64,000 bases of DNA from a virus (taxonomy: Duplodnaviria > Heunggongvirae > Uroviricota > Caudoviricetes): IMG/VR virus record IMGVR_UViG_3300021400_000141, positions 321,354 to 385,353 of that record, one strand, 5' to 3'. A model generated the notes under the pieces. The model made no database searches. It saw nothing but the letters and a program-made list of their open reading frames with translations, and had not been told where the DNA came from. Each line of letters begins with the position of its first letter. Positions within the stretch are counted from its first letter, which is position 1. Shown here in pieces: positions 8,955 through 53,159 of this stretch. Position numbers and translations under genes: made by a program.

Positions 8955-8985
8955 GATGAAAAACAACATCAACAAAAGGTCTCAT

Positions 8986-9933: not shown

Positions 9934-9951
9934 CAACAAAGAGAATTTGAA

Positions 9952-10914
9952 ATGGAAAAGAAACTAAATACATATACAAACGGAAACCACAAGGTGACCA
10001 TCTATTCCGATGGCACCAAAATCAAAGAAACAATCGACCCCAAGGCCGACCATTTCACTTATGATTTTCCAGAGAACTTCGACATTAAAATCACCGACCA
10101 GTGCGATGGCGGTTGCGTATATTGTCACGAAAACTCCACTGTGAATGGAAAGCATGGAGACCTTCGTGCTTTGGAACCGATGATTGCAACCCTGCATGCT
10201 GGTACGGAATGCGCTGTGGGCGGGGGCAACGCATTGGCTCACCCTGACCTCGTATGGTTCCTAGAACGCTTGAAGGAACAGGGTGTCATTGCGAACATCA
10301 CCATCAACCAGCGTCACCTGAGACCGTACAAGGACCTCATCTGCAAGATTGTAGGTGAAGGCCTTGTTCACGGAATTGGCATTTCGCTGACCGATGCAAG
10401 CAACAAGGACGACTTTGCGTTTATCGACACTCTCGGAAACAATGTTGTCATCCACACGATTGCGGGCATCCTTTCGGAAAACGATGTTGCCCCCCTGTTT
10501 GGCCGCAAGATTCTTATCCTTGGCTACAAGGACTTGCGTCGTGGTCACACTTTGCTCGAAAAGCAGTCCGAAGAAATCAAGGCGAACATCAAGTGGTTGC
10601 AGAGCCTGTTGGTACGGATTGGTTCAACCAATATCAATCCGTTCAAGGTAATCTCGTTTGACTGCCTCGGTATCGAACAGCTTAACCCGAAGGCGTTGCT
10701 CAACATTTCCGACGCCCGTTATGATACCCTGTTCCAGGGTTCTGACACGGATGTTATGGACGCTGACGGAAACATTGCCTGTGCGACAATGTACATCGAC
10801 GTTCCCAACATGCAGGTTGCCCGTATGAGCACAGCCGCTTTGGACAAGCGTTATCCGTTCACTGGAAAAGAAAACATTCACGACCTTCTTCAGATTACTA
10901 CACAAGGATGGTAA
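9952..10914 (+). CDS. radical SAM protein, QueE-like (7-carboxy-7-deazaguanine synthase family)
   Basis: CDGGCVYC (Cx3Cx2C) followed by a GGGNALAHP segment resembling QueE SGGNP; longer than typical QueE. Confidence 0.5.
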   Translation: MEKKLNTYTNGNHKVTIYSDGTKIKETIDPKADHFTYDFPENFDIKITDQCDGGCVYCHENSTVNGKHGDLRALEPMIATLHAGTECAVGGGNALAHPDLVWFLERLKEQGVIANITINQRHLRPYKDLICKIVGEGLVHGIGISLTDASNKDDFAFIDTLGNNVVIHTIAGILSENDVAPLFGRKILILGYKDLRRGHTLLEKQSEEIKANIKWLQSLLVRIGSTNINPFKVISFDCLGIEQLNPKALLNISDARYDTLFQGSDTDVMDADGNIACATMYIDVPNMQVARMSTAALDKRYPFTGKENIHDLLQITTQGW

Positions 10915-12089: not shown

Positions 12090-12827
12090 ATGAAGAAAAT
12101 TCTATTCGTATTATTGTTCTTGTTCTCGATGGCATCCGCTATCGAGATACCGCCGACACCGAAAAACACATTTGTGTACGACGGTGCTGGCATCATGTCC
12201 GCAAACGAGGTGTACCAGTTCAATGCAATCGCCGCTGACCTTGCAAAGAACGCAAACTTCGGTCTTGCCTTGGCCACATTCAAGTCGATTGACGGTCAGG
12301 ACCCCGTTGAATTCAGTTTGAAGGTTGCCCAGAAGTGGGCGATTTGCAGCAAGGATTCCAACGAGGGTGTCCTAATCTATGTCGTAATGGAGCCGCACCT
12401 GAGAGGCGTGCAGGTTGGCTACGGTTCGGAAGGCTATCTTCCCGATGTCCTTGTGGAACACATGCAGGAAGTCTCTCTTATCCCCGCATTGCAACAGGGT
12501 AAGGGAGGTCAGGGTGCCATCAAGCTTGCCAGCATGATTGCACAGAAGGTGCAGGAAGAGAAGAAGATTGCTCTGTCTGCAACACTCGATACGGCACAGC
12601 TCGCTCCTGCCGAAGGAGACCATCTCAAAGGGTGGCAGAAGGGTCTGATTATCTTCATTATCATCGCAGTTTTCATCCTGTTGGGCATCATCGAGGCGGT
12701 CACCGACATTCCGTGTTTGAGTGGTTTGCTTCTCATTCTTTCCTGCCTTGGTAAAGGCGGTGGAGGTGGTGGCCGTGGTTTCGGTGGAGGCGGATTCGGC
12801 GGTGGCGGAAGTCACGGTGGCTGGTAG
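12090..12827 (+). CDS. TPM-domain (YgcG-like) membrane protein
   Basis: signal peptide, TPM-like domain, TM helix GLIIFIIIAVFILLGII, Gly-rich C-terminus GGGGGGRGFGGGGFGGGGSHGGW. Confidence 0.6.
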   Translation: MKKILFVLLFLFSMASAIEIPPTPKNTFVYDGAGIMSANEVYQFNAIAADLAKNANFGLALATFKSIDGQDPVEFSLKVAQKWAICSKDSNEGVLIYVVMEPHLRGVQVGYGSEGYLPDVLVEHMQEVSLIPALQQGKGGQGAIKLASMIAQKVQEEKKIALSATLDTAQLAPAEGDHLKGWQKGLIIFIIIAVFILLGIIEAVTDIPCLSGLLLILSCLGKGGGGGGRGFGGGGFGGGGSHGGW

Positions 12828-12829
12828 CC

Positions 12830-12858
12830 TTGACAAGAATTAAATTAAATACTATATT
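12830..12858 (+). promoter_or_regulatory. sigma70-type promoter (TTGACA, 17 nt, TATATT)
   Basis: cTTGACAagaattaaattaaatacTATATTtt upstream of lemA. Confidence 0.5.
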
Positions 12859-12893
12859 TTAACCAAAACATTAAAACAAAGAGGTAAATAACC

Positions 12894-13490
12894 ATGTCTA
12901 CGGGCAAAATCATCCTTATCGTTCTCGCTGTTCTCGCATTCATCGGCGGAGCAACGCTTATCGGACAGTTCAACGGCATCCGCACCCTTGAAAACGGTGT
13001 GCAGATGAGCTGGGCCAATGTCGAAAACCAGTATCAGCGTCGTTACGACCTTATCCCGAACATCGTCGAATCGGTGAAGGGTGAGGCAAACTTTGAAAAG
13101 AGCACGCTCACCGAAGTCATCGAAGCACGCAGCCGCATGGGTGGCGTGATGAAGATGGATGAAAGCATGCTTGGCGACGAACGTGCAATGAAGCGCTTCC
13201 AGGAAGCTCAGAACAGCCTCGGTGGTGCATTGCAGCGTCTCATGATGCTTACTGAAAACTATCCCAACTTGAAGGCTAATGCCGCTTTCCGAGACTTGCG
13301 TGTTGAACTTGAAGGATGCGAAAACCGTATCGCCGAAGCAAGGCGTCAGTTCAACAAGTCTGTCAACGACTTGAACAACAAGGTAAGAACTTTCCCTGGC
13401 GTTCTCGTTGCTGGTATCGCAGGCGTGACCCCGAAGGTTCCGTTCTCCGCAGTGACTGGTGCTGATGTAGCACCGACCGTGAAGTTCTAA
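12894..13490 (+). CDS. lemA: LemA family protein
   Basis: N-terminal TM helix, then QYQRRYDLIPNIVESVKG, LTEVIEARSRM and RQFNKSVNDLNNKVRTFPGVLVAGIAG, the typical LemA signature. Confidence 0.8.
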   Translation: MSTGKIILIVLAVLAFIGGATLIGQFNGIRTLENGVQMSWANVENQYQRRYDLIPNIVESVKGEANFEKSTLTEVIEARSRMGGVMKMDESMLGDERAMKRFQEAQNSLGGALQRLMMLTENYPNLKANAAFRDLRVELEGCENRIAEARRQFNKSVNDLNNKVRTFPGVLVAGIAGVTPKVPFSAVTGADVAPTVKF

Positions 13491-14047: not shown

Positions 14048-14593
14048 ATGAGTCTCATCGACAGATTGTGGGAAGGTGTATGTGAAGGTGGGCCGTCTAT
14101 CCTAGCTTGTCATGAACGGATAATCGGCGGAATGGTCTATGCCTTTAAGAAGGCGTCTGAAACTGAAATAACTTTGGACGTATATTACGGAAATGACCAC
14201 TACGATTTTGGTGTGGTGTTCAGGTCGGTTGTAAATGACAAGGAGCACTCCCCGTGTGTGACCATGAAGTACCCACCGAAGGAAAAATACGAGTTCATCC
14301 ATGTTCAGGATGCTGTTGGAATGATTGGAACATCATTGCTTGGTGACTACAAGGAATGGAGTGATGATTCCATTAAACAGTGGGTTGAAAGCATGATTGA
14401 TGAGTACGGGAAGCTTGCCTCTTGGAGAATATGGGTTTCCAAGAAGTTCAAGGAACTGGAATCATCCCTGCTTGAACCTGACTGGAATATCGTAGCGGCA
14501 ATCACTAAGGAGATAAAAGCTCATTCCGACCTGATATTCAAACATGGACATGTCACATGTGAGGAAAGTCCCGAAGACGAGAGAGAGGGATAA
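14048..14593 (+). CDS. hypothetical protein immediately upstream of cas3
   Basis: RBS ggaggt; its stop lies 4 nt before the cas3 ATG, so probably co-transcribed. Confidence 0.5.
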   Translation: MSLIDRLWEGVCEGGPSILACHERIIGGMVYAFKKASETEITLDVYYGNDHYDFGVVFRSVVNDKEHSPCVTMKYPPKEKYEFIHVQDAVGMIGTSLLGDYKEWSDDSIKQWVESMIDEYGKLASWRIWVSKKFKELESSLLEPDWNIVAAITKEIKAHSDLIFKHGHVTCEESPEDEREG

Positions 14594-14597
14594 AAGC

Positions 14598-16838
14598 ATG
14601 AACCCGAACGACTTATTGGCGAAAAGTGATGGCACTACATTGATAGCTCATTCCAGAGCAGTAGCTGACATGGCAAAGAGAATTGCTGAAACACTTGGCT
14701 TCGATAGTGTGTTAACCGCACTATGCTATGTGGCCGGGCTTTTGCATGATATCGGCAAAGCAATATCACCTTTTCAGGAAATACTGCGTGAAAATGAGCA
14801 TGGGCCTGGTAAATTGAGCGACGATTGCAATGCTCGTCACAGTGCAGTAAGCGGATGGTTTATGGCTAACCATGCAGCAACGTTCGATAAGATGGTTCCT
14901 GGTGTGAATGGCAGAGCTAGTGAAATCTTGTGCCGTGCCGTTACATGGCACCACAAGCCATATTTTCCTGTTGAGGAAAGTCGGTTTGCGTACGATGAAC
15001 AGTTCGATGCAGAAATCAAGTCGTTTGTTGATGCACTCGTTGATAACCTTGATTGGAGCATTAGTTCTGACGATGATTTTGATTTTTCTGGTGGAGATTT
15101 TTCCTATTTCTATACAAGAAATCTTTCTGGTAAAATCAATTCTCGAATTCATGCTGTGAGGTCGGTAGTCATTCGTGCTGACTATCTTGTAAGTGGAGGT
15201 GTTTCCGAATACTCGATAAGTAAACTTGCACCTATTGATATTGATTCTATCGCATGCCCGATTGATTTCAATGCAGAGCGATTTGTATTTCAGCGAAACG
15301 AAATTGCAAAGAAAGCAATGGAATCTGGCAAGAAAACTGTTGTGATAAATGCACCCGCAGGTTTTGGAAAAACTATTATTGGTCTGCTTGCAGGACTTCA
15401 TCGAGGTGAAAAGATTTACTGGGTTGTTCCAAGAAACGTTATTGCCGAAGAAGTGTATCGTTCTATTTCGGATTTGCTGTCGATGTTGAATGTATCGGAA
15501 ACATATTCGTTGAACATGATTTTTGGCGGCAAGGTTCAGCTTGGCCCAGAAAATGCCGACATTACAGTAACTAACATTGATGCTATCTTGCAGCCGATGG
15601 GTCAACATGGAAATATGGGTTTGCAGTGTGATATGCTGAGTGGAACAATGATATTTGACGAATATCATGAACTGGTAGGAAATAGCCCGATGTGGTCGGC
15701 ATTTCTTATCCTCATGGCTGCAAGAATGGAGGCGAACGGTAGAAATATCCTCGTTTCGGCAACACCGTTAGATATCATGTCGTGTTTGAAAGTGAACCCT
15801 GATGATGTTCTGTATCTTCCAGGTAAGAACATCCATTACCAAGCACAGCATTCAGTTCCATACCATATCGAAACTGCTGACAGCATGCCCTCCTTGGTTA
15901 GTGGAGATAGCTTCGCTATCAGCAACTGCATTTCACGTGTGCAGAAAGTACAGTGTGGAATTATGTTTCATAGCAAGTATACTGACGAAGACAAAAACGG
16001 CATCATATCCCAATTATTGAATTCGTTCGGAAAGGGAAAGACCAATGTAGTCGATGGGGTATCAGCAGGCCCGATTTTGAGCACTTCGCTTGACCTATCG
16101 TGTACACATTTGTATGAAAGTGTATGCAGTCCTATGGATTCCATGCAGCGAATTGGGCGGTGTAACCGCTTTGGAAACAAAAGTGGATGCTCGGTAACCT
16201 TCGTGACTGGAAGCGTTCCAGGTGAACGAGATTATGTGGATATGAAATTTACGACGGAGCTTCGTTCAGAATGGTGTGACACTATCCGTCGGGAATTCAA
16301 TAAAAAAGATATTACTCTTGATGAAATGTATCGTTGCTACGATAAGTTCATGGAAGAAAATGCTGCCCGCATTAAAAGGTGGATGGTTGGTCTGCAACAA
16401 GAGAGCATTAACTGCCTCGTTACAAGCTGTGCCCCATGTGTCTTTGAAGTTGCTTTGCCGAAAAAGAACAAAGGCAAAAGCGGTGGTACTATACGAAACC
16501 CAGAACCAAATATGTACTACATAGTCCCATCTGCCGATGAGAAGACCTACTATGGGCCTTTCAGTATCGACATTGCCACGGCAAACGGGCCGAAGTATGG
16601 TAGAATATTCAGACAGGTGAACAACTTAACGGAATACGAAAAGGCCAAGCAGGCATCTCCTGCTCTTGTGAACGGAACGACAGAATATCTCTCTGGCGGA
16701 ACCCGTAAGAAACGGTGGTATAAGGAGAATGCAGACAAGTTGGCTAGAAACTCGGAAAGCCCGTTTGTCGTATCTGCTAGGTACATGACATACGACTCGT
16801 TCAATGGAGTTGTATTCAACTCGAATATGGAAGACTAA
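14598..16838 (+). CDS. cas3: Cas3 HD-nuclease/helicase (no Cas2 fusion)
   Basis: N-terminal HD motifs (LIAHSRAV, LLHDIGKA); helicase Walker A INAPAGFGKT, DExH box MIFDEYHE, SAT-like LVSATPL, motif VI QRIGRCNRFG. Confidence 0.85.
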   Translation: MNPNDLLAKSDGTTLIAHSRAVADMAKRIAETLGFDSVLTALCYVAGLLHDIGKAISPFQEILRENEHGPGKLSDDCNARHSAVSGWFMANHAATFDKMVPGVNGRASEILCRAVTWHHKPYFPVEESRFAYDEQFDAEIKSFVDALVDNLDWSISSDDDFDFSGGDFSYFYTRNLSGKINSRIHAVRSVVIRADYLVSGGVSEYSISKLAPIDIDSIACPIDFNAERFVFQRNEIAKKAMESGKKTVVINAPAGFGKTIIGLLAGLHRGEKIYWVVPRNVIAEEVYRSISDLLSMLNVSETYSLNMIFGGKVQLGPENADITVTNIDAILQPMGQHGNMGLQCDMLSGTMIFDEYHELVGNSPMWSAFLILMAARMEANGRNILVSATPLDIMSCLKVNPDDVLYLPGKNIHYQAQHSVPYHIETADSMPSLVSGDSFAISNCISRVQKVQCGIMFHSKYTDEDKNGIISQLLNSFGKGKTNVVDGVSAGPILSTSLDLSCTHLYESVCSPMDSMQRIGRCNRFGNKSGCSVTFVTGSVPGERDYVDMKFTTELRSEWCDTIRREFNKKDITLDEMYRCYDKFMEENAARIKRWMVGLQQESINCLVTSCAPCVFEVALPKKNKGKSGGTIRNPEPNMYYIVPSADEKTYYGPFSIDIATANGPKYGRIFRQVNNLTEYEKAKQASPALVNGTTEYLSGGTRKKRWYKENADKLARNSESPFVVSARYMTYDSFNGVVFNSNMED

Positions 16839-16876
16839 ATAAAGTATTTTGTAAATATAATTTTACATAATACGAC

Positions 16877-16904
16877 TTACATTCATGATTGAATTAACTA
16901 TATT
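16877..16904 (+). promoter_or_regulatory. possible internal promoter (TTACAT, 16 nt, TATATT)
   Basis: cTTACATtcatgattgaattaacTATATTtaat in the 98-bp AT-rich gap between cas3 and the next gene. Confidence 0.3.
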
Positions 16905-16936
16905 TAATATCAAATCAAACACAAAAGGAAATAAAT

Positions 16937-17965
16937 ATGATTAAACAGATTCCAACAATCAAACTTCATGTCACGTTCAAGGGTCAGGGAATAGTCAACT
17001 ATGACGGCAAAGACCAGAAGCAGGTTATTTTGGACACCAAAGCAATTACACTTCCTCGTGATAATCAAGGGAAAGTTCGTGATAACCTTAAAATTGCCAA
17101 GGCCACGTATGCCATTGATGGTGATGGAAACGTAAAACGCTCTGTAAAGGTGTCTTCAGATTGTATTCGTCAGGCCATTTTCAGATTAAAACATAACCCG
17201 AACATTGTTTTTAGCCCAGTATTGTTTAACGACTGGATTTCATCAAAGACAGCGCTAGTGAGAGGATATTTTTTTCCAAAAGATGGGGGAAATGCGGCTA
17301 GCCGAAAGAGCCCTCTGACCGTGCTTGATGCACTAGAAGTAAGTGGGCAGATTTCCACGTTTAACGTTCATAGTAACAGCGGTGCTCGTACCGACAATAG
17401 TCTGTACTATGTGGAAGAGATTGGGGAAACCCGTTTCGAAAACGACATGTATATCGACCTTTCTGAACTTAAGCATATCGTGTTATCTGACACATACGGT
17501 AGAAACAGTGTGTTTTCTGACGGTGAAGAATCCCTTGTTGCAAAGCTCCGTGAAAAGTACGGTGTAGTCACAACAGGGTTTTTCCGCATGGATGGAGAAA
17601 CTGTGGAGGTTCCTGAATACGGGGCGGAAATCTCTGATGAAGCAGTTGTGTCTATTGTACGGGATTTGATTGACCATATAAAGCAGTTACATATCAACCG
17701 TTCTAACGCATACCTGGAATGTGATACCATTGAGGTGTTTGCATTCGAAAACGGTGCGTGGATTCCTATGGATGAAAAGAGCAACTTTACTGTCAAAAGT
17801 AGTTATGTTCTCATTGAAGACCAAGACGGTGCAAAAACGCTTCATGACGATGTATGTGACAAGGCAAATCAGGGACAGACTGCCCGCAAAGAAGCAAAGA
17901 AAGAAGAAGCCGCAAAGAAAGCTGCAAAGAAAGCTGCCAAAAAAGCAGCAAAGGACAATACATAG
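16937..17965 (+). CDS. putative Cascade subunit A (Cas5/Cas8-like or Cas7-like) with Lys/Ala-rich C-terminal tail
   Basis: position between cas3 and cas6; 342 aa; C-terminal AKKEEAAKKAAKKAAKKAAK; no confident motif match. Confidence 0.4.
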   Translation: MIKQIPTIKLHVTFKGQGIVNYDGKDQKQVILDTKAITLPRDNQGKVRDNLKIAKATYAIDGDGNVKRSVKVSSDCIRQAIFRLKHNPNIVFSPVLFNDWISSKTALVRGYFFPKDGGNAASRKSPLTVLDALEVSGQISTFNVHSNSGARTDNSLYYVEEIGETRFENDMYIDLSELKHIVLSDTYGRNSVFSDGEESLVAKLREKYGVVTTGFFRMDGETVEVPEYGAEISDEAVVSIVRDLIDHIKQLHINRSNAYLECDTIEVFAFENGAWIPMDEKSNFTVKSSYVLIEDQDGAKTLHDDVCDKANQGQTARKEAKKEEAAKKAAKKAAKKAAKDNT

Positions 17966-17967
17966 CC

Positions 17968-18912
17968 ATGGCGTTTCTTGACCTGACAATTAAACTTACC
18001 GATGGTAAGCGGTTTCGGGCGGCAGACCGAATTAATCAAAATAGTACAGATTTTAAGTCGAGTAATATTCATGACGATTGCCCTGATGATACAATCCCTA
18101 TAACATCTGTTGCAAACATCCTCGCTAAACTGTCTGGTCATCGTCCATGGAAGCGTAATGACATTGAACTAGGAAAGGTTCCTATTAGTTTCTCCCGTTT
18201 CATGAATATGGCAAATCGGTCTCGTGTGGAGATATTCACTGTAGGTGGAAACAAGGAACTTATGCGAAGTTCAAAGGCATCCCATTCTGGTACAAAACAA
18301 ACGTGGAAACTTAGACTTGACGGCAATCTGTTTCCTATAGTGCGTAACTTACCTACTTATGAAACCATCCAAGCAGTACTCCCTGAGGTAGACTGGAAAA
18401 ACTTGGAGGCAATGCTCATAAACCTGTTTGGCTCAGATTACCGTACCAACTTGACCTCAGGAGCGACATCTGCTGCAGCGATGATTGAGAATCTCCGTAA
18501 AGAATATCTGCGTGGCAACAAAGAGGTTATTGCATTTTGCGAATACTACAAGAATACATCGACCAAACTTCGTGATTTGCTTATTGTCCCGCTGACAACA
18601 GGTTCTCCAGTCCGAGATGGTAAAAAATACAAGGTATTCCGCATTGACAGTCCAATAGGAAAGACTTCTGTAGAAAGGCTTTTACATAACAAGACAAATA
18701 CCCACGGCATTCTCATGGCTCAGGTAGTTTCTGGTGTTTTGCATGTCAAAATTGCCGAGAGTGAATTGGAGATGTTTCGTAACGGTCCAGGATTTGCCAC
18801 ATTCCTAGACGGAGGTGTGGCAGAAATTGAAACGCTTGACCTTGACTACTGGCAAAGTGAAACCGATAGCTTACCGAATCCGTTTATATCAAAAACAACA
18901 AAACAGGAGTAA
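17968..18912 (+). CDS. putative Cascade subunit B (Cas7-like or Cas5-like)
   Basis: 314 aa; starts 2 nt after the stop of the preceding gene; position matches the I-F variant layout cas5fv-cas7fv-cas6f. Confidence 0.4.
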   Translation: MAFLDLTIKLTDGKRFRAADRINQNSTDFKSSNIHDDCPDDTIPITSVANILAKLSGHRPWKRNDIELGKVPISFSRFMNMANRSRVEIFTVGGNKELMRSSKASHSGTKQTWKLRLDGNLFPIVRNLPTYETIQAVLPEVDWKNLEAMLINLFGSDYRTNLTSGATSAAAMIENLRKEYLRGNKEVIAFCEYYKNTSTKLRDLLIVPLTTGSPVRDGKKYKVFRIDSPIGKTSVERLLHNKTNTHGILMAQVVSGVLHVKIAESELEMFRNGPGFATFLDGGVAEIETLDLDYWQSETDSLPNPFISKTTKQE

Positions 18913-18917
18913 CCTAT

Positions 18918-19472
18918 ATGCGAACTGTATTCTACTGCACTATTCATCATGACCATAAGGCTACCCACAACGATATTCACAAAAAGATAACAGCCATTTA
19001 CCAACAATCCCCTGGCCCTCGTTGGTGTAGCAACGGCTCGGTTGTTGAGGTTGTTAGCGATAAAATGCCTATACGTTGCGACCAGGTTTCATCTGTTCGT
19101 GAAGTTAGTGTGCCTACTGGGTTACTTACACTATCGTTTCAGTACCCTGCAATACGTCGTAGCAATGATGGTAAGAAGGAGCATGTAAAGATATACGATT
19201 CCCCTGCTATTGCAAAAAAACAAATTTCTGAGAAGGTATGCACCCGTCTGAGCGAACTTGGAATGTCTGATGTTCGTATAGTGGAATATGTACACAACGT
19301 ATGTCGTCTTGACTTGCATGACCGTAAGAATGGTATATCAAAAGTTCCCGTGTCGTTCATCGTTGCCAAGTGCGTTTGTGCAGATGAGGATAAAGTACGA
19401 CATCTTATGGTGAACGGAATAGGAAAGTTCCGCTTCGCAGGCCTCGGGATGATTTATGTAACAGAAGGGTAA
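18918..19472 (+). CDS. cas6: Cas6-family CRISPR repeat endoribonuclease (Cas6f-sized)
   Basis: 184 aa; C-terminal glycine-rich loop GIGKFRFAGLG (GhGxxxxxGhG); its stop codon directly abuts the first CRISPR repeat. Confidence 0.7.
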   Translation: MRTVFYCTIHHDHKATHNDIHKKITAIYQQSPGPRWCSNGSVVEVVSDKMPIRCDQVSSVREVSVPTGLLTLSFQYPAIRRSNDGKKEHVKIYDSPAIAKKQISEKVCTRLSELGMSDVRIVEYVHNVCRLDLHDRKNGISKVPVSFIVAKCVCADEDKVRHLMVNGIGKFRFAGLGMIYVTEG

Positions 19473-19925
19473 GTTTCCCGTGCATACGGGAATTGAAATG
19501 AATACAAAGCCCTATCTTATTCATTGAAAATATGTTTCCCGTGGGAGCGGGAATTGAAACTTTGCACTCGTCCCTCGTAATGGGTTTTCAAAATGTTTCC
19601 CGTGAATACGGGAATTGAAAGAGCGCACTTGTTCCTCGGAATGGGTTTATACAATGTTTCCCGTGTGTTCGGGAATTGAAACGAATACGATACCTGGCTA
19701 CGACAGAGCTACAATGTTTCCCGTGTTTGCGGGAATTGAAAGAGATACGTGTGAGGGTTTCCCCATTCTCCAGTAGGTTTCCCGTGTTTGCGGGAATTGA
19801 AACTCATATTGGACCTCGCCGTTTACGATGTCGAAAGGTTTCCCGTGTGTGCGGGAATTGAAACGATACATTGACAGACCCGAAACATTGGGACGAATGT
19901 TTCCCGTTTATGCGGGAATTAAAAA
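19473..19925 (+). CRISPR. CRISPR array, 8 repeats and 7 spacers, type I-F-like hairpin repeat
   Basis: repeats (ATGTTTCCCGTG-NNNN-CGGGAATTGAAAC) start at 19473, 19534, 19595, 19656, 19716, 19777, 19838 and 19899 with 60-61 bp periodicity; 6-bp stem TTCCCG/CGGGAA with a variable 6-nt loop; unique 32-34 nt spacers; last repeat degenerate (..CGGGAATTAAAAA). Confidence 0.9.
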
Positions 19926-19954
19926 AGCCCACACCATTAAGGTGTTGGCTTTCT
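19921..19954. terminator. bidirectional rho-independent terminator shared by the CRISPR array and clpX
   Basis: aaaaaa-agcccacacc-attaa-ggtgttggct-ttct; 9/10 bp stem; the A6 on plus gives a T6 for the minus-strand clpX transcript. Confidence 0.65.
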
Positions 19955-19966
19955 AACTTAATTTTC

Positions 19967-21214
19967 TTATGATGCTTTCCGTTCTTGTATATTGAAGTGT
20001 TCCATCACCATGTCTTGCGTGATGTGGATTTCCTTCTGTTCGCTGTCGGGGCCCATGAACATTGCGTTATGGAGCAACTCTTCGACGATTGAACGGAGGC
20101 CACGAGCGCCCGTATGACGGTCGATTGTCAGCCTTGCGATTTCACCAAGGGCTTCTTCGTCGAGCGTGAGTTTAATGCCGTCAAGTTCGAGGAGTTTTGT
20201 GTACTGCTTGATGATGGCATTCTTCGGTTCGGTCAGGATGCGACGGAGGGCTTCTTCGTCAAGTTCATCGAGTGCGACGGTAACGGGAAGTCGTCCCACA
20301 AGTTCAGGCATGAGGCCGAACTTCACGAGGTCATCGGGTTCGCACTTATCGAAGAGTTCACTGAGGCTCTTCTTTTCCTTATTGTGGATGGTGGCACCGA
20401 ATCCCATGCCGCCACTCTCGGTACGCTCGGAAATGATGTCTTCCAGCCCCTCGAACGCTCCACCGCAGATGAAGAGGATGTTCCTCGTGTCAATTGAAAT
20501 AAGTTTCTGCTCGGGGTGCTTTCGTCCGCCCTGCGGATTGATTTTAGCCTCGGTTCCTTCCAGGAGTTTCAACAGTCCCTGCTGAACACCTTCGCCAGAA
20601 ACGTCTCGGGTGATAGATGGGTTGGAACTCTTCCTTGCAATCTTGTCGATTTCGTCGAGGAAGATGATGCCGTGTTCAGCGGCGATAGCGTCCATGTCTG
20701 CAGCTTGGAGGAGACGGGAGATGATGCTGTCCACATCTTCGCCCACGTAGCCTGCCTCGGTAAGGACGGTTGCATCGGCGATTGCGAACGGCACGTCGAG
20801 CATCTTGGCGATAGCCCTTGCGAGCATCGTCTTTCCGCAACCAGTCGGGCCCACGAGGAGGACATTAGACTTCTCGATTTCCACATCGTCGTCCGAACGG
20901 ATTGCGTTGTAGTCCAGACGCTTGTAATGGTTGTACACGGCGATAGAAAGGGCTTCCTTGGCCTTGTCCTGACCGATTACGAACTGGTCGAGGTGTTCCT
21001 TAATCTTGTGCGGGGATGGCAGAGCAGCGGCTTTCTTTGGCTTAGGTTCCTTGAGCATGGGGGATTTTGCACCCATCATGCTACTGGCGAGCTTGACGCA
21101 GTCTTCGCAAATCGTTGCGTACATTCCGCTTACGGCCTTCGCTGTAGGTGCAAGGGGCTTTCCGCAGAAGCTGCAAGCAGGGGTAGTTTCTTGTGTAGGT
21201 TTTTTAGTTGCCAT
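19967..21214 (-). CDS. clpX: ATP-dependent Clp protease ATP-binding subunit ClpX
   Basis: N-terminal zinc-binding domain CSFCGK...CEDC; Walker A LLVGPTGCGKT; IIFLDEIDKIARK; full-length ClpX architecture (415 aa). Confidence 0.9.
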   Translation of the reverse strand: MATKKPTQETTPACSFCGKPLAPTAKAVSGMYATICEDCVKLASSMMGAKSPMLKEPKPKKAAALPSPHKIKEHLDQFVIGQDKAKEALSIAVYNHYKRLDYNAIRSDDDVEIEKSNVLLVGPTGCGKTMLARAIAKMLDVPFAIADATVLTEAGYVGEDVDSIISRLLQAADMDAIAAEHGIIFLDEIDKIARKSSNPSITRDVSGEGVQQGLLKLLEGTEAKINPQGGRKHPEQKLISIDTRNILFICGGAFEGLEDIISERTESGGMGFGATIHNKEKKSLSELFDKCEPDDLVKFGLMPELVGRLPVTVALDELDEEALRRILTEPKNAIIKQYTKLLELDGIKLTLDEEALGEIARLTIDRHTGARGLRSIVEELLHNAMFMGPDSEQKEIHITQDMVMEHFNIQERKAS

Positions 21215-24531: not shown

Positions 24532-25680
24532 ATGTTTGGCGACGTGATTAACAACATCTGCGGTGCGCCTCGTGAATACGGGGTTGTGCTCGGGTCTTTC
24601 AGCCCGATGCACACAGGTCATCTTGACCTCGTAATGGCAGCGAAGAAGCTCTGCTCTAAGGGCGCTATCATTGCCGTTTGCGGTCTTGATGGTGACCGTG
24701 GCACGAGAATCGGTCTCCCTATTGAACGCCGCTATGAAATCATCAAGAAGATGTTTGAAGGCGACCCGCTTGTACACGTCGTCATGATGAAGGATAACGA
24801 TATCGGCATCGCAGGTTACATGGACAAGTGGGCTGAATGGTTGGAAGCCCTAAGCTATAAAATAGCTGAAGTCGTGTATGGCAATGCTGATATTAGCAAG
24901 AGAAAGTGCATGAAATTGCTTCAACGCACGACTGTCTTTACTGGTGAAGAGTCGTACAGACAGGCAATCATGTCGTTGGTGATGAAGGGCCCTAATGTGT
25001 TCCAGTTGTCCAGGAAATTGAATACGATTTCTGCGACAAAGATACGAAAGCAACCGATGAAGTATTGGGACGAAATCATTGGGTATGAGTTCAAGGCTCA
25101 GTTCGCCAAGCGTGTCTTGATTATCGGTACGGCATCGGAAGGAAAGTCTACTCTCACGAAAGACCTTGCACGATATTTCGATGCGGGTTGCACCGAGGAG
25201 TATGGACACACGTATATTGCCGATGTGAATGGTGAAACCCCACATCCAGACGATACCAAGCTGACCTACGATGACTACATCCGTTTCCTTGACGAACAGT
25301 ATCGTGTCAACTCGGCAAGCTGGCATAAGGTTAACATCTGTGACAGTGACGCAATGACGACGCTCATGTATGCCAAATACTATTCGATGGATGACAGGTA
25401 TGCCATCACCGAAGAAGATTACAAGCGTATCGAAGCGCATGCAAAGTTCCTGAAGTACGATGCAATCTTTGTTCTTCCACCGAAGAAGGACAGTTGGGTG
25501 CAGGACGGCAGCAGGGATTGCCTCACCAACAGTTTCGAAGACCGTAAGAAGCAGTACCAGGTATTGATGAGCATTATCGGACAGCACTACTGCACCGAAG
25601 ATATCGTTTACCTGAACGGCACTTATCACGAGAACTTCATGAGGGCCAGAGACAAAATCAAGAGTTTGCTTTCTGACTAG
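24532..25680 (+). CDS. nadR: bifunctional NMN adenylyltransferase / ribosylnicotinamide kinase (NadR-like, no HTH)
   Basis: N-terminal HxGH nucleotidyltransferase motif GSFSPMHTGH; C-terminal Walker A GTASEGKST. Confidence 0.75.
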   Translation: MFGDVINNICGAPREYGVVLGSFSPMHTGHLDLVMAAKKLCSKGAIIAVCGLDGDRGTRIGLPIERRYEIIKKMFEGDPLVHVVMMKDNDIGIAGYMDKWAEWLEALSYKIAEVVYGNADISKRKCMKLLQRTTVFTGEESYRQAIMSLVMKGPNVFQLSRKLNTISATKIRKQPMKYWDEIIGYEFKAQFAKRVLIIGTASEGKSTLTKDLARYFDAGCTEEYGHTYIADVNGETPHPDDTKLTYDDYIRFLDEQYRVNSASWHKVNICDSDAMTTLMYAKYYSMDDRYAITEEDYKRIEAHAKFLKYDAIFVLPPKKDSWVQDGSRDCLTNSFEDRKKQYQVLMSIIGQHYCTEDIVYLNGTYHENFMRARDKIKSLLSD

Positions 25681-25692
25681 GCTGAATGGACT

Positions 25693-25767
25693 CGGGTAGT
25701 ATCCCAACTGGTAGAGGAATGGGACTTAAAATCCTTACAGGTGTGGGTTCGAATCCCACCTGCCCGA
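25693..25767 (+). tRNA. tRNA, anticodon loop cTTAAaa (anticodon UAA, Leu-type) in a short-variable-arm scaffold
   Basis: acceptor cgggtag/ctgcccg (one G-U pair), U8, D-loop with GG, T-arm gtggg-TTCGAAT-cccac, discriminator A; anticodon stem only 4 bp. Confidence 0.5.
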
Positions 25768-25786
25768 TTAAAAGTAAGGTGTAATT

Positions 25787-26980
25787 ATGATTGAGATACA
25801 GGGAAAGTTTAATACGGCCAAGGTGTTCACCGACAATATCGAGCCCGAGGCTTACACACAGTTGTTGAACATGATGTGCCAGTGCTGGGCTAAGGACATG
25901 CAGGTTCGCGTCATGCCCGACGTACATGCTGGAAAGGGGTGTACGGTTGGAACCACTATGACCATCAAGGACAAGGTTGTTCCTAACCTGGTCGGGGTGG
26001 ACATTGGGTGTGGTATGCTTGTCGCCAAGTTGAAAGACCGTTCGGTTGATTTCGACAAGTTGGACAAGGCTATCCGTGAAAGGATTCCATCTGGTAAGAG
26101 CCACCGTGAAAGCAAGCATTCGATGGCAAAGGACTTTCCTATCGAGGATATGATTGTCTACAAGGAAGGGAAGATGGAGTATACCGAGCTGTTGTCGCTT
26201 GGGTCACTCGGCGGTGGCAACCACTTCATCGAACTGGACAAGGATTCCCACGGCAATCTGTACATCGTAATCCACTCTGGTTCCCGTCATCTTGGGTTGG
26301 CAACATGCGATTACTGGCAGGGACTTGCAATCGACGAATGCAATGACCTTACGCAGCAGCGTGGGGCCATTATCGCCAAGTACAAGCGTGAGGGACGTGA
26401 AAACGAGCTTGAAGCGGCGTTGGCAAGCATCCCTCATTTCCCGCCACCGAAGGAACTGTCTTACCTCACTGGCAAGTCGTTCGACGGATATCTGCATGAC
26501 ATGGCGTTGGCACAGGAGTTTGCAACACGCAACCGCGAAGCGATGCTTGAAGAGATTGTCAGGGCGCTCCGCCTGCATGTTGTGGACAAGTTCTGCACAT
26601 TGCATAACTACATCGACTTGAAGCACATGATACTCCGCAAGGGTTCTGTATCGGCTCAGGAAGGTGAGCGTCTTATCGTTCCTTTGAACATGAGGGATGG
26701 TTCTCTTATCTGCACTGGTAAGGGAAACCCTGACTGGAACTTCTCGGCTCCTCACGGTGCAGGACGCAAGATGTCCCGTTCAAAGGCTAAGGAAAGCATC
26801 TCCCTTGAAGCGTACCAGAAGGCCATGCGTGGCATCTACACGACTTGTGTAAACAAATCTACTTTGGATGAATCCCCGATGGCATACAAGCCGTCCAAGG
26901 AAATAATCGAGAACATCAAGGATAGTTGCGATGTTGTAGATACTATCAAGCCTGTGTACAACTTCAAGGCATCTGACTGA
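25787..26980 (+). CDS. rtcB: RtcB-family RNA 3'-phosphate/2',3'-cyclic-phosphate ligase
   Basis: MPDVHAGKGCTVGT, GCGM, SLGGGNHF, HNYI and APHGAGR motifs in RtcB order. Confidence 0.9.
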   Translation: MIEIQGKFNTAKVFTDNIEPEAYTQLLNMMCQCWAKDMQVRVMPDVHAGKGCTVGTTMTIKDKVVPNLVGVDIGCGMLVAKLKDRSVDFDKLDKAIRERIPSGKSHRESKHSMAKDFPIEDMIVYKEGKMEYTELLSLGSLGGGNHFIELDKDSHGNLYIVIHSGSRHLGLATCDYWQGLAIDECNDLTQQRGAIIAKYKREGRENELEAALASIPHFPPPKELSYLTGKSFDGYLHDMALAQEFATRNREAMLEEIVRALRLHVVDKFCTLHNYIDLKHMILRKGSVSAQEGERLIVPLNMRDGSLICTGKGNPDWNFSAPHGAGRKMSRSKAKESISLEAYQKAMRGIYTTCVNKSTLDESPMAYKPSKEIIENIKDSCDVVDTIKPVYNFKASD

Positions 26981-33702: not shown

Positions 33703-33929
33703 ACCATGAATATTCCTACCGCAAATTTCAAGAACAAGATGATTACCAAGAAAACGAACAGGCCTCCTAATAGGGTGTCTCCTATTATATTCTTCGGATA
33801 GACCTTGTTGAAGTCTTCCTTAGCTGCTTCAATAGAATTGAAACAACGTCCATTGTCTCGGCAATGATGCCACTTTCCGTCACGCTGGTAGTACATTTCG
33901 CCACGGCGTTCTCCAAATTCTCTAGCCAT
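33699..33929 (-). CDS. small membrane protein
   Basis: C-terminal hydrophobic helix LGGLFVFLVIILFL. Confidence 0.4.
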   Translation of the reverse strand: MAREFGERRGEMYYQRDGKWHHCRDNGRCFNSIEAAKEDFNKVYPKNIIGDTLLGGLFVFLVIILFLKFAVGIFMV

Positions 33930-38568: not shown

Positions 38569-38607
38569 CATCATCTGAAAAAATATAGAAAATTTAAACA
38601 ACCCCCC

Positions 38608-38636
38608 TTGACAAAGGGGGTTTAATTATCTATATT
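38608..38636 (+). promoter_or_regulatory. sigma70-type promoter with hairpin around the -35 and conserved TTTAATTATCTATATT core
   Basis: aaccccccTTGACAaagggggtttaattatcTATATTatt. Confidence 0.55.
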
Positions 38637-40767: not shown

Positions 40768-40794
40768 AAAATCATAAAATTTACATAAACCCGC

Positions 40795-40823
40795 TTGACA
40801 AGGCGGGTTTAATTGTCTATATT
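40795..40823 (+). promoter_or_regulatory. sigma70-type promoter with hairpin around the -35
   Basis: aaacccgcTTGACAaggcgggtttaattgtcTATATTaac. Confidence 0.55.
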
Positions 40824-43152: not shown

Positions 43153-43177
43153 CGTGTGTTTTTTTTGCATAAACCCC

Positions 43178-43206
43178 TTGACAAGAGGGGTTTAATTATC
43201 TATATT
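43178..43206 (+). promoter_or_regulatory. sigma70-type promoter with hairpin around the -35
   Basis: aaaccccTTGACAagaggggtttaattatcTATATTatg. Confidence 0.55.
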
Positions 43207-50163: not shown

Positions 50164-50622
50164 ATGTTAAAATTTTACATCGAAGCTCTCAAATTCGTAT
50201 GGGCATGGACTAAGAAATTCCTGCTTGCTATTACTGTTCTGCTCCCAGGCATCATCTTCCTGATATACATGTTTGCCGAAAATATGCCAGATGTAGGGAT
50301 AATCCCAGGCCTCCTCGTCATTGCCGCTATTGCACTGTGGGCACCAATTCCTCTGCGTCCGTTCTTCTTTCAAGGCCAGAAATTGATTGAATGCTATGTG
50401 ACAATGTTTGGGGCGATAGGTATTGCGATTGCGTTCTGCCTTGTCTTGTTAGGCTGGCTTGTGTGGTTGCTCCTTCCTATCCTAACTGGATTGGTTATAA
50501 GCGCCGTATTGAACCGTGAACCAAAACCACTTGAATGTGTAGGAACAATAGTATTCAACATTGTTTGGGGCCCAGGTGCTCATTACGTTTACCAAAAGCT
50601 GCTTGACAAAGTAATTAAATAA
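50164..50622 (+). CDS. membrane protein
   Basis: multiple hydrophobic helices. Confidence 0.5.
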   Translation: MLKFYIEALKFVWAWTKKFLLAITVLLPGIIFLIYMFAENMPDVGIIPGLLVIAAIALWAPIPLRPFFFQGQKLIECYVTMFGAIGIAIAFCLVLLGWLVWLLLPILTGLVISAVLNREPKPLECVGTIVFNIVWGPGAHYVYQKLLDKVIK

Positions 50623-50643
50623 TCCTATATTCAATGAAGATAA

Positions 50644-50718
50644 TGCCCCGTAGCTCAATGGACTTAGAGCGTCGCTCTCCGAAGGCGAAGGTTACGAGTT
50701 CAACCCTCGTCGGGACAA
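50644..50718 (+). tRNA. tRNA-Arg (anticodon CCG)
   Basis: acceptor tgccccg/cgggaca (one C-A mismatch), U8, D-stem gctc/gagc, anticodon loop cuCCGaa, variable aggtt, T-arm acgag-TTCAACC-ctcgt, discriminator A. Confidence 0.65.
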
Positions 50719-50722
50719 CTAA

Positions 50723-50831: not shown

Positions 50832-51554
50832 ATGGAACTGCATCACAAGATAATCGAAGTTCTTAATCAGGAATTCCCGACATTGGTACTTCCCGAAATT
50901 CAGAAAGGATTTAAAATAGCCATCACAGTGACCCTCGAACGGCTTGCACCTGACCCGAAAAATCCAGTACAATATATGGAGTTTTCCTACTACTCCGAAA
51001 CAGGTGATTTCACTTACGTTCCTATCCTGTTGAGCTCTGGCATAGGTCACCAAACCACAGTAGAAGAGTTCCAGAGAGAACTTCAGTGGGCTAAGGAAAA
51101 TGGACCATTCAAGGTAAATGCTTCGGTCAATTTCGTTTGCCCTTCAATAACTGTCTACAACAAAACCACAGTGAATTCCGATAATAATTTTTCTCAGGAA
51201 ACTTTCACCGATGAGGAAATCAAAATGGCTCGTGAACGAGAGAACGATACGTTCGGTGTGGAAGTGTCCGAAGACAAGTTTAAAATCAAGGTGTTCCCGA
51301 AAGATAAAAACTCCATTTATGACTCTCTCCTTCTTACGGTCGAACGCCATATCAAGTTCCCTAAGGACAGGATGTGGCACCTCGAACTTCTGACCGATAT
51401 TCCCAACATTGGCACTGACCCGCACAATGACCTGAGCAATCACACAAGGTGGGCTGGAATCCCTTTTAGCGTCATGCTCGACAAGATGTTCGACCTTTAT
51501 GAAGATGATGGTTATACGGTGATTCCAGCCGCAGGAAATTTAAAAGAAAATTAG
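50832..51554 (+). CDS. hypothetical protein
   Basis: RBS aaaatggag; 240 aa. Confidence 0.5.
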   Translation: MELHHKIIEVLNQEFPTLVLPEIQKGFKIAITVTLERLAPDPKNPVQYMEFSYYSETGDFTYVPILLSSGIGHQTTVEEFQRELQWAKENGPFKVNASVNFVCPSITVYNKTTVNSDNNFSQETFTDEEIKMARERENDTFGVEVSEDKFKIKVFPKDKNSIYDSLLLTVERHIKFPKDRMWHLELLTDIPNIGTDPHNDLSNHTRWAGIPFSVMLDKMFDLYEDDGYTVIPAAGNLKEN

Positions 51555-51563
51555 TGAACCCCC

Positions 51564-51592
51564 TTGACAGCACTTTCGTTCTTTTCTATATT
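51564..51592 (+). promoter_or_regulatory. sigma70-type promoter (TTGACA, 17 nt, TATATT)
   Basis: cccccTTGACAgcactttcgttcttttcTATATTtat. Confidence 0.55.
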
Positions 51593-51599
51593 TATAAAC

Positions 51600-51900
51600 G
51601 GACACAGGGGAAACCCTGTGGGACAGCAAACCAAGCCGTGGATGGCGGCTACATACGCTGTTCATCCCTTCATGGATGCATCGTGAAGCGGTTGGAGTCG
51701 GACCGTATGAGCGACCAAGGTTCAGCCCGTCTCCTAAATGGGGCCAGTTGACGCTTTTCGAGTTTCGATGATTAAGCCATCGCGATGGTCTGATGTAAAC
51801 TCGTAGCACTTGCGACGACTAAACTTGCCCTCGGGGTAATTTGAATGCCGCAGCGTATCCCCCCTACGCTTAGCCTCATCAGCAGGGGGTTTTCTTTTTA
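51600..51900 (+). ncRNA. candidate ~300-nt non-coding RNA with its own promoter and terminator
   Basis: no ORF with an RBS inside; 5' hairpin cacagggg-aaa-ccctgtg just after the predicted TSS; several internal hairpins; ends with cccccc...ggggg then ttttcttttt. Confidence 0.4.
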
Positions 51901-51916
51901 TAGAGAGTAAGTCAAA

Positions 51917-52447
51917 ATGGAAGAAGTTTATCAAGTTTCCTCGGTTCCTGTCATGGGCATATGGTGCGCCTACAAGCTCGCACCACTCTACCCGTTCTTC
52001 TCATCGTTCAATGTCTCGGAAGCGAAACACGGTCAGAACTCCGTTAAAATCCTCTCCACCGAACGGGGGAAATTCAGTCAGAAAGGAACTATCCACCGCA
52101 GGATTAACTCGAACGACCTACTCAGTTCACACCCAATCGAGGTGGATGTCCCCTATGAATACAGGATAAAGTTCCAGCTCGAAGACGGAACACTCCAGAC
52201 AGTCTACACCAATTCCGACGAGGCAGGCTGCCTGCTCCGTCTCATGTCCTCCCAAGAGAATATTGACAAATTCCGTAAACTTGCTCTCAAAGGCTATTGG
52301 GCGGCTGCTATGACCGCTCTCATGGGTGAAGAAGTTGTTGAAAAATCCTTTATCAGCATGACAGACAAGGAAAATCTTGAAGCGCTTGCTAAATTGGGCG
52401 GTAAGAAAGTAGATGATGCGGCAAACAATTCACCCAAGGTAGAATGA
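51917..52447 (+). CDS. hypothetical protein
   Basis: 176 aa. Confidence 0.5.
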   Translation: MEEVYQVSSVPVMGIWCAYKLAPLYPFFSSFNVSEAKHGQNSVKILSTERGKFSQKGTIHRRINSNDLLSSHPIEVDVPYEYRIKFQLEDGTLQTVYTNSDEAGCLLRLMSSQENIDKFRKLALKGYWAAAMTALMGEEVVEKSFISMTDKENLEALAKLGGKKVDDAANNSPKVE

Positions 52448-52680
52448 TGAACAATCTGCAATATTTTGTGAGAAATGAGAAGAACATCCATAGGCTAATC
52501 TATGTTCTTGGGAGCGACGATTGCGATGTATGCCCAGCGCACTCGTTCTGCTTGGCTGACGGCAAAAGGGCCGAGCCCAAGTATGAGGATTGCGGAGATG
52601 CCTTCGTCGCTTGGGCAATGAAGGAAAAGAAAATAAGAAGCAAAACGGATAAACCCTGGCTTGAAACACCAAACATCTGA
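52444..52680 (+). CDS. small Cys-containing protein
   Basis: ATGATG overlap; CDVCPAHSFC. Confidence 0.45.
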   Translation: MMNNLQYFVRNEKNIHRLIYVLGSDDCDVCPAHSFCLADGKRAEPKYEDCGDAFVAWAMKEKKIRSKTDKPWLETPNI

Positions 52681-52687
52681 GGAACCT

Positions 52688-52951
52688 ATGATTGTCCGAA
52701 TAACTGAAACAGTTTACAGCGAGTTCAGCGGCGTGTATAAACGTGAACCCGTCCTATACAAGATACCAGGAGAACTGCAGAAGATGGTTGATGATATCCA
52801 CAAGATGTCAAGGGATAGCGCAATCAAGGCAGATATCTTCTCCGCAGAACTGACAGACAGCGATAATCTCCTTTGTAATAATCCATATCATAATAGTCCA
52901 AGTTGTAATAAGGAGGAGTCAGATGGTTGTGACACAGGAACGAGTGATTGA
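52688..52951 (+). CDS. hypothetical protein
   Basis: ATG after gaggaacct. Confidence 0.45.
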   Translation: MIVRITETVYSEFSGVYKREPVLYKIPGELQKMVDDIHKMSRDSAIKADIFSAELTDSDNLLCNNPYHNSPSCNKEESDGCDTGTSD

Positions 52952-53097
52952 TTGGCTCGAACGTCAGATAGGATTCGTAAAGGCGAACCACCTCGAAAAT
53001 TGCCTTATGACAAATGATGGCGACCTGAAGATGGAGCCAGAGCATCCTAACCTATGCACCATCGTCATCTATGACCCGAGGATTCCAGCAATATAAT
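52924..53097 (+). CDS. small hypothetical protein (57 aa)
   Basis: below the cutoff; strong RBS aaggaggag. Confidence 0.4.
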
Positions 53098-53130
53098 GTA
53101 AGAATTTTTAAAAAAATGTCCGAACCCGCT

Positions 53131-53159
53131 TGACAATGCGGGTTTAATTATTTATATTG
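53131..53159 (+). promoter_or_regulatory. sigma70-type promoter with hairpin around the -35
   Basis: gaacccgcTTGACAatgcgggtttaattatttaTATTGg. Confidence 0.55.

Follow-up and report, generated by a model that had tools for sequence, protein, structure and literature searches.

A candidate new family of conserved, folded non-coding RNA carried as an accessory cassette by rumen megaphages

Comparison of related phage genomes indicates that an element of about 350 nt lying between two protein genes of an uncultivated rumen megaphage is a conserved, folded non-coding RNA cassette of a new family, found so far in one rumen megaphage lineage. The cassette (51555..51904, + strand, of the 64,000-nt stretch of DNA that was analysed, hereafter the window) consists of a promoter, an RNA of about 300 nt, and a terminator, and it forms a clean indel relative to related phages. 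Uncultivated megaphages are known for their tRNAs, CRISPR systems, and translation genes; to our knowledge, their non-coding RNA content is almost unexplored, and a search of the literature on non-coding RNAs of megaphages and rumen phages returned nothing relevant. The RNA described here is comparatively well supported, as it combines a conserved promoter and covarying helices with a core that is constrained more than the neighbouring protein gene. We consider it a credible new RNA motif of narrow distribution, and its size is tractable for structure work.

An earlier note on this DNA had proposed an sRNA, a long structured leader, or a regulatory RNA at this place. What stands of this proposal is that a discrete structured element, non-coding and bounded by a promoter and a terminator that belong to it, is present; covariation, purifying selection, the retention of promoter and terminator, and the lack of a conserved open reading frame (ORF) all argue for it. 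The same evidence fits both a stand-alone RNA and a leader.

The cassette, its promoter, and its distribution

The predicted sigma-70-type promoter (51564..51592, + strand) comprises the -35 hexamer TTGACA (51564-51569), a 17-nt spacer, and the -10 hexamer TATATT (51587-51592), and agrees with the consensus at 11 of 12 positions; transcription is predicted to start at about 51599-51600. With at most one mismatch allowed, TTGACA-N17-TATATT occurs 23 times in the 64-kb window, where 0.42 copies are expected from shuffled sequences, and it therefore represents a real promoter class of the phage. Since an ORF starts 20-40 nt past the -10 element of most copies, the class can be regarded as the standard promoter of the phage, presumably an early one that is used by the host polymerase. 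Both hexamers and the 17-nt spacing are constant across all RNA variants, with spacer letters that differ at several positions (e.g., in L029). The strong promoter that the earlier note had placed at 51564-51592 is thus borne out by the consensus match, the 23-copy class, and the conserved hexamers. The distance from the -10 element to the next ORF, 324 nt, is an outlier within the class, the nearest value being the 200 nt to the ORF behind the promoter of a tRNA-Arg(CCG) gene (50644-50719), which is driven by the class copy at 50603. This tRNA unit with its own promoter (50603-50719) lies about 900 nt upstream of the RNA.

In many promoter copies of the window, the -35 hexamer TTGACA falls within the loop of a GC-rich hairpin (e.g., at 38598-38636, 40785-40823, 43168-43206, and 53122-53158), the spacer holding the 3' arm and a TTTAATT run, as in CCCCC-TTGACAAA-GGGGG-TTTAATTATC-TATATT. 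These hairpin-embedded promoters look like combined terminator-promoter modules, and they could be recombination hot spots for cassette shuffling.

The stop codon of the upstream 240-aa gene occupies 51552-51554. In the cassette-less relative L031 the two flanks are joined directly (...TAATTGCA|GAGTAAGTAAAAATGG, the junction being also given as TAATTGCA|GAGTAAGT), and in the RNA-bearing locus L009 about 350 nt stand between exactly these flanks, so that ...TAATTGCA is followed by an insert running from AAACCACTTGACA to TTTTTATAGA and then by GAGTAAGTCAAAATGG. The same downstream gene is preceded by a spacer of a mere 17-38 nt, with no RNA, in L003/L004, L012-L015, L031/L032, and L043-L045. The alignments indicate that the unit of promoter, RNA, and terminator is gained or lost as one block and is an optional cassette. 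Partial forms occur as well. A variant in L018 is devoid of the first hairpin, H1, which is accordingly dispensable. The 207-kb relative L030 carries a short form of about 140 nt (L030:2860-2990) ahead of the same 176-aa gene, in which the promoter, H1, an H2-like hairpin, and the 3' half of the terminator are kept and about 90 unrelated nt take the place of the conserved core of about 170 nt. Loci with the core, without the core (L030), without H1 (L018), and without the cassette thus make up a natural series that can serve as a ready-made deletion set.

About 17 distinct RNA variants were recovered by protein-anchored look-ups and a 20-nt DNA pattern scan of JGI metagenomes, all of them on rumen megaphage contigs of 130-422 kb (IMG/VR, metagenomes). 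An exact match of the 176-aa protein encoded downstream puts the window itself on a 419-kb rumen contig from ENA (L006), and we assign the element on this distribution to an uncultivated rumen megaphage lineage. The known family is narrow, with one such lineage and members that are all at least 82% identical. Neither a distant blastn search of INPHARED with the region nor a megablast with 12 kb gave a match, and no paralogues were detected by blastn and nhmmer in the window or in the other loci. A 19-mer scan of 185,579 GTDB genomes returned one match only, in a Rhizomicrobium MAG; its flanks are dissimilar, and it was rejected as a bacterial homologue or a clue to the host and attributed to chance.

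Folded 5' domain, invariant core, and terminator

A 13-sequence alignment was used to assess both covariation and ORF conservation. On neither strand do the 13 variants have an ORF whose frame or extent is conserved; ORFs of 20-52 codons occur but vary in both respects from variant to variant, and 1- or 2-nt indels are found at five places in the conserved part of the RNA. A small protein is ruled out by these frameshifting indels and the non-conserved ORFs. This agrees with the earlier note, which had described about 300 nt with no RBS-preceded ORF (the promoter-to-ORF distance is 324 nt) and had named a conserved small ORF with ribosome footprints as an observation that would speak against a non-coding RNA.

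Covariation in related phages, which the earlier note had suggested as a check, argues for a folded RNA. In the RNAalifold consensus of the 13 sequences 98.7% of cells are paired, and seven pairs show changes on both sides, as opposed to 0-2 in controls with the partners shifted by 1-3 columns. The double-changed pairs fall in four helices, namely the hairpins H1, H2, and H3 of the 5' domain and a hairpin further downstream, helix 11. Many G-U pairs occur in the consensus helices, so the structure is specific to the + strand. Folded as a single sequence, the full-length RNA is not significantly more stable than shuffles (z = -1.46), whereas its 5' 100 nt are (z = -3.3); in view of the weak full-length value, the case for a structured RNA rests on comparative evidence and not on the single-sequence fold. 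A long-range helix of the minimum free energy structure, GUCGGACCGU/GAUGGUCUGAU, was rejected, as a U-to-C change in L019, L040, L029, L018, and L024 turns one of its pairs into an A-C mismatch.

H1 (51603..51620, + strand) is a predicted 7-bp stem capped by a GNRA loop, CACAGGG-GAAA-CCCUGUG, the tetraloop being GAAA in the window and GCAA in other variants. Its pair at alignment columns 15-26 is GC in 7 sequences, AU in 3, and GU in 2, and the 5' hairpin cacagggg-aaa-ccctgtg of the earlier note is a real one at this position, with an A-U pair replaced elsewhere by G-C or G-U. H2 (51621..51663, + strand) consists of an outer and an inner stem (the latter GCCG/CGGC) separated by an internal loop, and it is closed by the 7-nt loop UGGAUGG; independent predictions for five variants agree on this fold. 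The sequence gccgtggatggcggc (51635-51649), one of the internal palindromes singled out by the earlier note, corresponds to the inner stem of H2, and the other, catcgcgatg, lies inside a 12-nt palindrome at 51777-51788 discussed below. Compensatory changes in H2 are seen at columns 32-73 (AU/GU/GC) and 34-71 (CG to UA), and in the alignment the inner stem of L007/L009 shows a G-C to U-A exchange. H3 (51668..51688, + strand) covaries at columns 80-99 (CG 10, UA 3) and 81-98 (CG 8, UA 3, AU 2); an alternative local pairing at 51663-51678 also has one compensatory change, and the register given for H3 is therefore tentative.

In diverged variants, the 5' domain (51603-51688) is 48-70% identical to the window (about 62% between variants), close to the 63-71% at four-fold-degenerate sites of the adjacent gene. 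At identities of about 62-70%, five variants folded over this domain alone give the same three hairpins. The z-scores are -2.5 to -3.6 in four variants with all three hairpins and -0.8 in L018, which is without H1. Taken together, the comparisons indicate that the 5' hairpins are selected for shape, with a sequence that drifts at about the neutral rate and a pairing that is preserved.

Tandem hairpins that begin 3-4 nt past the predicted transcription start and keep their structure despite drift are reminiscent, we assume, of the put RNA of phage HK022. Promoter and 5' hairpins might then act in cis as a processive antitermination RNA, the core being a passenger module; polymerases from the cassette's own promoter would pass its terminator, and read-through transcripts from upstream would be stopped there. 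The short form in L030, in which the promoter, H1, the H2-like hairpin, and the terminator are retained and the core is replaced, speaks for such a mechanism. However, L018 does without H1, and the strongest signal of all, the invariant 170-nt core, would be left unexplained, and we therefore consider a put-like role very improbable.

The core (51689..51807, + strand) is conserved in a different manner, namely in sequence, with an identity above that of the four-fold sites of the adjacent gene. A 38-nt block (51694-51731) is identical in all variants. Over 51689-51856 (172 alignment columns, about 170 nt), identity to the other variants amounts to 88-100%, and to 88-94% in diverged pairs, in comparison with 63-71% at four-fold-degenerate sites of the adjacent gene in the same comparisons, which points to purifying selection on the RNA sequence. 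The adjacent protein gene as a whole is about 85% identical at the nucleotide level, and selection on the sequence of the core is thus stronger than that on this gene taken as a whole. The predicted fold of the core is no better than that of shuffles (z = -0.08), and the core varies too little for its secondary structure to be read from comparison.

The core contains a perfect 12-nt palindrome (51777..51788, + strand; CCATCGCGATGG / CCAUCGCGAUGG), which is still perfect in the variant forms CCAUCAUGAUGG (L002, L019, L021) and CCAUUGCAAUGG (L018, L024). It has one break in L025, and single-step intermediates between the perfect forms are not found among the variants. The central positions of the palindrome cannot pair inside one hairpin. 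The self-duplex is predicted to be 15-19 kcal/mol better than two hairpins, as holds for any such palindrome. That the palindrome is kept self-complementary hints at an intermolecular duplex and dimerisation; the support amounts to two double substitutions only, one of which (C-G replaced by U-A next to a 2-nt loop) could alternatively reflect a CUUG-type tetraloop.

A core that is conserved in sequence without a detectable signal of RNA structure, together with a palindrome that stays palindromic, could also be explained by conservation at the DNA level, e.g., of a site bound by a protein or of a signal for recombination or replication, in which case promoter and terminator would be incidental. 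The GATG/CATC motifs, which look over-represented as read from the sequence, would fit this explanation. On the other hand, H1-H3 and helix 11 contain G-U pairs and compensatory changes, which are features of RNA and specific to one strand, and the promoter and terminator are co-conserved and travel with the element as one cassette. It is, moreover, improbable that an essential cis-acting DNA site would take the form of an accessory cassette that is missing in close relatives. Of all the explanations weighed here, we hold a DNA-level element to be the least probable.

The border between the 5' domain and the core is marked in other ways. A number of short metagenome or Logan contigs (L011, L036, L037, L039, L041, L042) start inside the RNA, and their starts fall at or near the border of the variable 5' domain and the invariant core, which suggests that the differing 5' domains of co-existing strains cause assemblies to break at this place. 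The border also marks a recombination boundary, since the identity of L007 and L009 to the window is 100% for the core and the downstream gene but only 70% for the 5' domain.

Directly 5' of the terminator lies helix 11 (51808..51856, + strand), a long irregular hairpin predicted from covariation. Its columns 230-265 show a perfect co-change (GC 6 vs AU 7), and changes are also seen at columns 238-257 (AU/GU/GC) and 243-253 (GU/AU). It is followed by an intrinsic-terminator-like element (51860..51899, + strand), which has a CCCCCU...AGGGGG stem (C6/G5, 51860-51889, about -12.4 kcal/mol) and then the U-tract UUUUCUUUUU (51890-51899). The earlier note had seen a GC stem and U-tract at about 51868-51900, and the terminator scan itself reported 51872-51891; the element is present, kept in the variants, and better placed at 51860-51899. 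Stem and U-rich tract are retained in all variants, with drift in the sequence of the tract. The loop is unusually long, with 18 nt and a 3-bp inner stem, and the terminator may therefore be weak. As a class, terminator-like sites are not enriched in the region (5 found vs 4.8 expected). The U-tract ends at 51899, 17 nt ahead of the ATG at 51917, which agrees with the earlier remark that the next gene begins just after the terminator.

Comparison with known RNAs and with the CRISPR locus of the phage

The RNA matches no described family. At gathering thresholds, Rfam 15 (4227 models) detected only two tRNAs in the whole window; at E <= 10, the region 51500-51960 gave five chance-level matches of 12-16 bits, as compared with thresholds of 41-75, and two further variants pointed to no consistent family. 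The Rfam or Infernal scan that the earlier note had recommended has thus been run on three variants without a family being matched. ARAGORN found only tRNA-Leu (25692-25768) and tRNA-Arg (50644-50719) in the window, so the RNA is neither a tRNA nor a tmRNA. The tRNA-Leu(UAA) gene is immediately followed by a gene for an RtcB RNA ligase (25787-26980) and preceded by a NadR-like gene (24532-25680).

Several specific likenesses were considered and set aside. A group I intron or a ribozyme derived from one is contradicted by the lack of an Rfam match, by the RNA's own promoter, and by its location between genes, and the group I R-like motif CAACGACUAGA falls in helix 11, where local pairing is backed by covariation. 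Further likenesses, to SRP domain IV (GUCGGACC...AGCGAC), to the Tetrahymena group I intron (AGUCGGACC and UCUCCUAAAUGGG), to the hammerhead (CUGAUGA), and to a K-turn, have no Rfam scores behind them and are regarded as coincidence. An omega RNA of a TnpB/IscB system was rejected as well, since TnpB lies upstream in L021 only, the other neighbours are unrelated, and the RNA has its own promoter.

The arrangement also resembles a type III toxin-antitoxin system of the ToxIN kind in gene order, with a leaky terminator between an RNA and a gene for a protein of about 170 aa. However, type III antitoxins are characterised by tandem direct repeats of about 36 nt that the toxin processes, and Tandem Repeats Finder detected no such repeats in 51555-51904; the protein has no ToxN, PADLOC, or Pfam match, and many relatives have its gene but not the RNA, a state that is incompatible with a toxin. 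A ToxI-like antitoxin was therefore rejected.

ROOL and GOLLD are large orphan structured RNAs that occur in phages close to tRNA genes. Like ROOL (RF03087) and GOLLD (RF01998), the present RNA is phage-borne, non-coding, located near a tRNA gene, and derived from rumen or gut metagenomes; it shares with them a conserved core with variable peripheral hairpins, the absence of a known function, and possibly self-association. It differs from them in its size (about 300 nt vs about 580 and 800 nt), in having no Rfam match at E <= 10, in its very narrow distribution, and in being always directly upstream of one gene. As a genetic unit, the cassette may be compared with phage morons and with the PeSL promoter/stem-loop cassettes of T4-type phages, which are autonomous units; it has in common with them its own promoter and terminator, its insertion between two genes of an operon, and its presence or absence among relatives, but its cargo is a structured RNA instead of a protein gene.

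The window also carries a phage-encoded, type I-Fv-like CRISPR-Cas locus (14544-19926) in which no adaptation genes were seen. It comprises a Cas3fv-like gene (14544-16838), a Cas7fv-like gene (16937-17965), an unassigned 314-aa gene (17968-18912), a Cas6-like gene (18918-19472), and an array (19472-19926) of 8 repeats (GUUUCCCGUG-N4-CGGGAAUUGAAAC) and 7 spacers, each 33-34 nt long. Over 24 nt, spacer 2 shares 87.5% identity with spacer 3, and the spacers match neither the cassette nor any of the fetched loci. A hairpin at 51825, UUGCCC-UCG-GGGUAA-UUUGAAU, resembles the repeat of the phage, UUCCCG-N6-CGGGAA-UUGAAAC; the match came only from a pattern written after the hairpin had been seen, and it was discarded. 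A covariance model of 7 of the phage's own repeats recovers the 8 array repeats at 34-47 bits in the window and, with filters off, finds nothing in 51555-51904 at E <= 10, and a mimic of this repeat was rejected. The idea of an RNA anti-defence element, raised in the earlier note, found no support; the one version of it that lent itself to a test, mimicry of the phage's own type I-Fv repeat, failed with the covariance model. The best match of the repeat model outside the array, at 33825-33845 (UGCUUC...GAAUUGAAACA; 15 bits, E = 0.14), shares the 3' handle of the repeat and is probably due to chance.

Downstream genes and possible roles of the RNA

In every RNA-bearing locus, the gene directly downstream is the 176-aa gene (51917..52447, + strand), and this linkage holds in all nine of the loci that were found by RNA/DNA pattern alone. 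The upstream neighbour varies and may be the 240-aa gene, a 221-aa gene, or a TnpB transposase ORF (L021). The 176-aa protein has no Pfam, PHROG, or PADLOC match; AlphaFold predicts its structure with low confidence (pLDDT 62), and a Foldseek search against BFVD and the PDB returned nothing below E = 0.04. Four genes (51917-53096) are without a promoter of their own, the next promoter being located at 53130. As no other promoter precedes 53130, these genes must be expressed by read-through of the terminator, and this requirement keeps a leader function alive.

The RNA may thus be a cis-acting attenuating leader, either riboswitch-like or sensing a protein or an RNA, in which the core would sense a ligand and helix 11 and the terminator would form the expression platform. 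The signal would decide whether transcription stops at 51890-51899 or continues into the gene for the 176-aa protein and three further small genes. We regard this as a serious possibility, although we think it will probably prove not to be the case. The order of promoter, conserved RNA, terminator, 17 nt, ribosome-binding site, and gene is the classic one of terminating riboswitches and attenuating leaders such as the T-box, lysine, and cobalamin RNAs; the size of the RNA is within the range of the larger of these classes, and the constancy of the downstream gene next to three types of upstream neighbour, together with the four promoter-less genes, agrees with control in cis. In addition, a candidate antiterminator pairing, AGCGUA (51852-51857) with UACGCU (51865-51870), overlaps the terminator and would compete with the base of helix 11 and the terminator stem. 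Even the short form in L030 keeps a promoter, a 5' hairpin, and a terminator ahead of the same gene. However, AGCGUA and UACGCU are invariant and thus without covariation support, the covariation backs the state in which helix 11 and the terminator are formed, and no helix enclosing the core communicates with the terminator. No known riboswitch class is matched, and the 176-aa gene has no recognisable function that would point to a ligand. Furthermore, the same gene occurs leaderless in relatives and without the core in L030, so the sensor would be dispensable for it.

We favour over the attenuating leader the explanation that the cassette is a self-contained accessory gene, with a structured RNA of about 300 nt as a stand-alone product that acts in trans, while giving it somewhat less than an even chance. 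The promoter belongs to a real and conserved class that also fronts tRNA-Arg, a stable RNA, and only the promoter of that tRNA has a gap to the next ORF comparable to the 324 nt seen here. The covariation in four helices, the + strand-only G-U pairs, the three 5' hairpins common to the variants, the stability of the 5' hairpin, and the conserved terminator all fit a discrete transcript, as do the core identity above that of four-fold sites, the lack of a conserved ORF, and the clean borders of the cassette. A stretch of about 170 nt that is near-invariant even in its predicted helices is more consistent with contact along most of its length than with a typical aptamer. ROOL and GOLLD, located near tRNAs in phages, provide a precedent, with tRNA-Arg lying 900 nt upstream in the present case. 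Against a stand-alone RNA, it must be said that the atypically long terminator loop may make for weak termination, and that the RNA is physically the 5' leader of four genes with no other promoter. No locus has the RNA apart from the 176-aa gene, as would be expected from a cis role but also from nothing more than a single origin. The family is confined to one lineage with all members at least 82% identical. The fold of the core is without thermodynamic or covariation support, and a dimer is suggested by two double substitutions, one of them explicable by the tetraloop mentioned above.

If the RNA acts in trans, RNA polymerase would initiate near 51599, and the 5'-terminal hairpins, one of them GNRA-capped, would make the transcript more stable and might also dock onto the core. 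Transcription would mostly stop at the U-tract (51890-51899) and give rise to an abundant, stable RNA. The invariant 170-nt core would be the working part and serve in trans as a platform to which a protein or some other nucleic acid binds; two copies may pair through the 12-nt palindrome into a homodimer. A fraction of the polymerases would pass the terminator and allow the four small downstream genes to be expressed. The stand-alone and leader readings are compatible, as a leaky terminator would yield both a stable RNA and downstream expression. A more far-reaching proposal, which we consider unlikely but worth stating, is that the cassette represents the first member of a previously undescribed class of structured phage RNAs, whose core would be an RNP- or ribozyme-like module, possibly joined into a homodimer by the palindrome, and which, as a mobile cassette, would have a role in host takeover or phage competition. 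A trans-acting RNA would add a new orphan class to the few large phage RNAs such as ROOL and GOLLD; a leader would represent a new type of sensor controlling early phage genes.

The surroundings of the cassette and the rest of the window hold other genes of interest. In L021, a 329-aa TnpB ORF with OrfB_IS605 and TNB domains (L021:91-1080) is inserted directly upstream of the cassette. In relatives that are without the full RNA, genes a few kb downstream encode proteins of 816-833 aa whose TNB domain resembles that of Cas12f1; the TnpB/Cas12f-like genes of L012 and L030 were located at L012:10901-12516 and L030:6019-6501. Auxiliary genes typical of huge phages are also present in the window, including those for a full-length ClpX homologue, a UDP-galactopyranose mutase, a QueC-like protein, a radical-SAM protein, and a TPM-domain/LemA pair; auxiliary genes were located at 19967-21214 (- strand), 7017-8270, 8953-10914, and 12090-13490.
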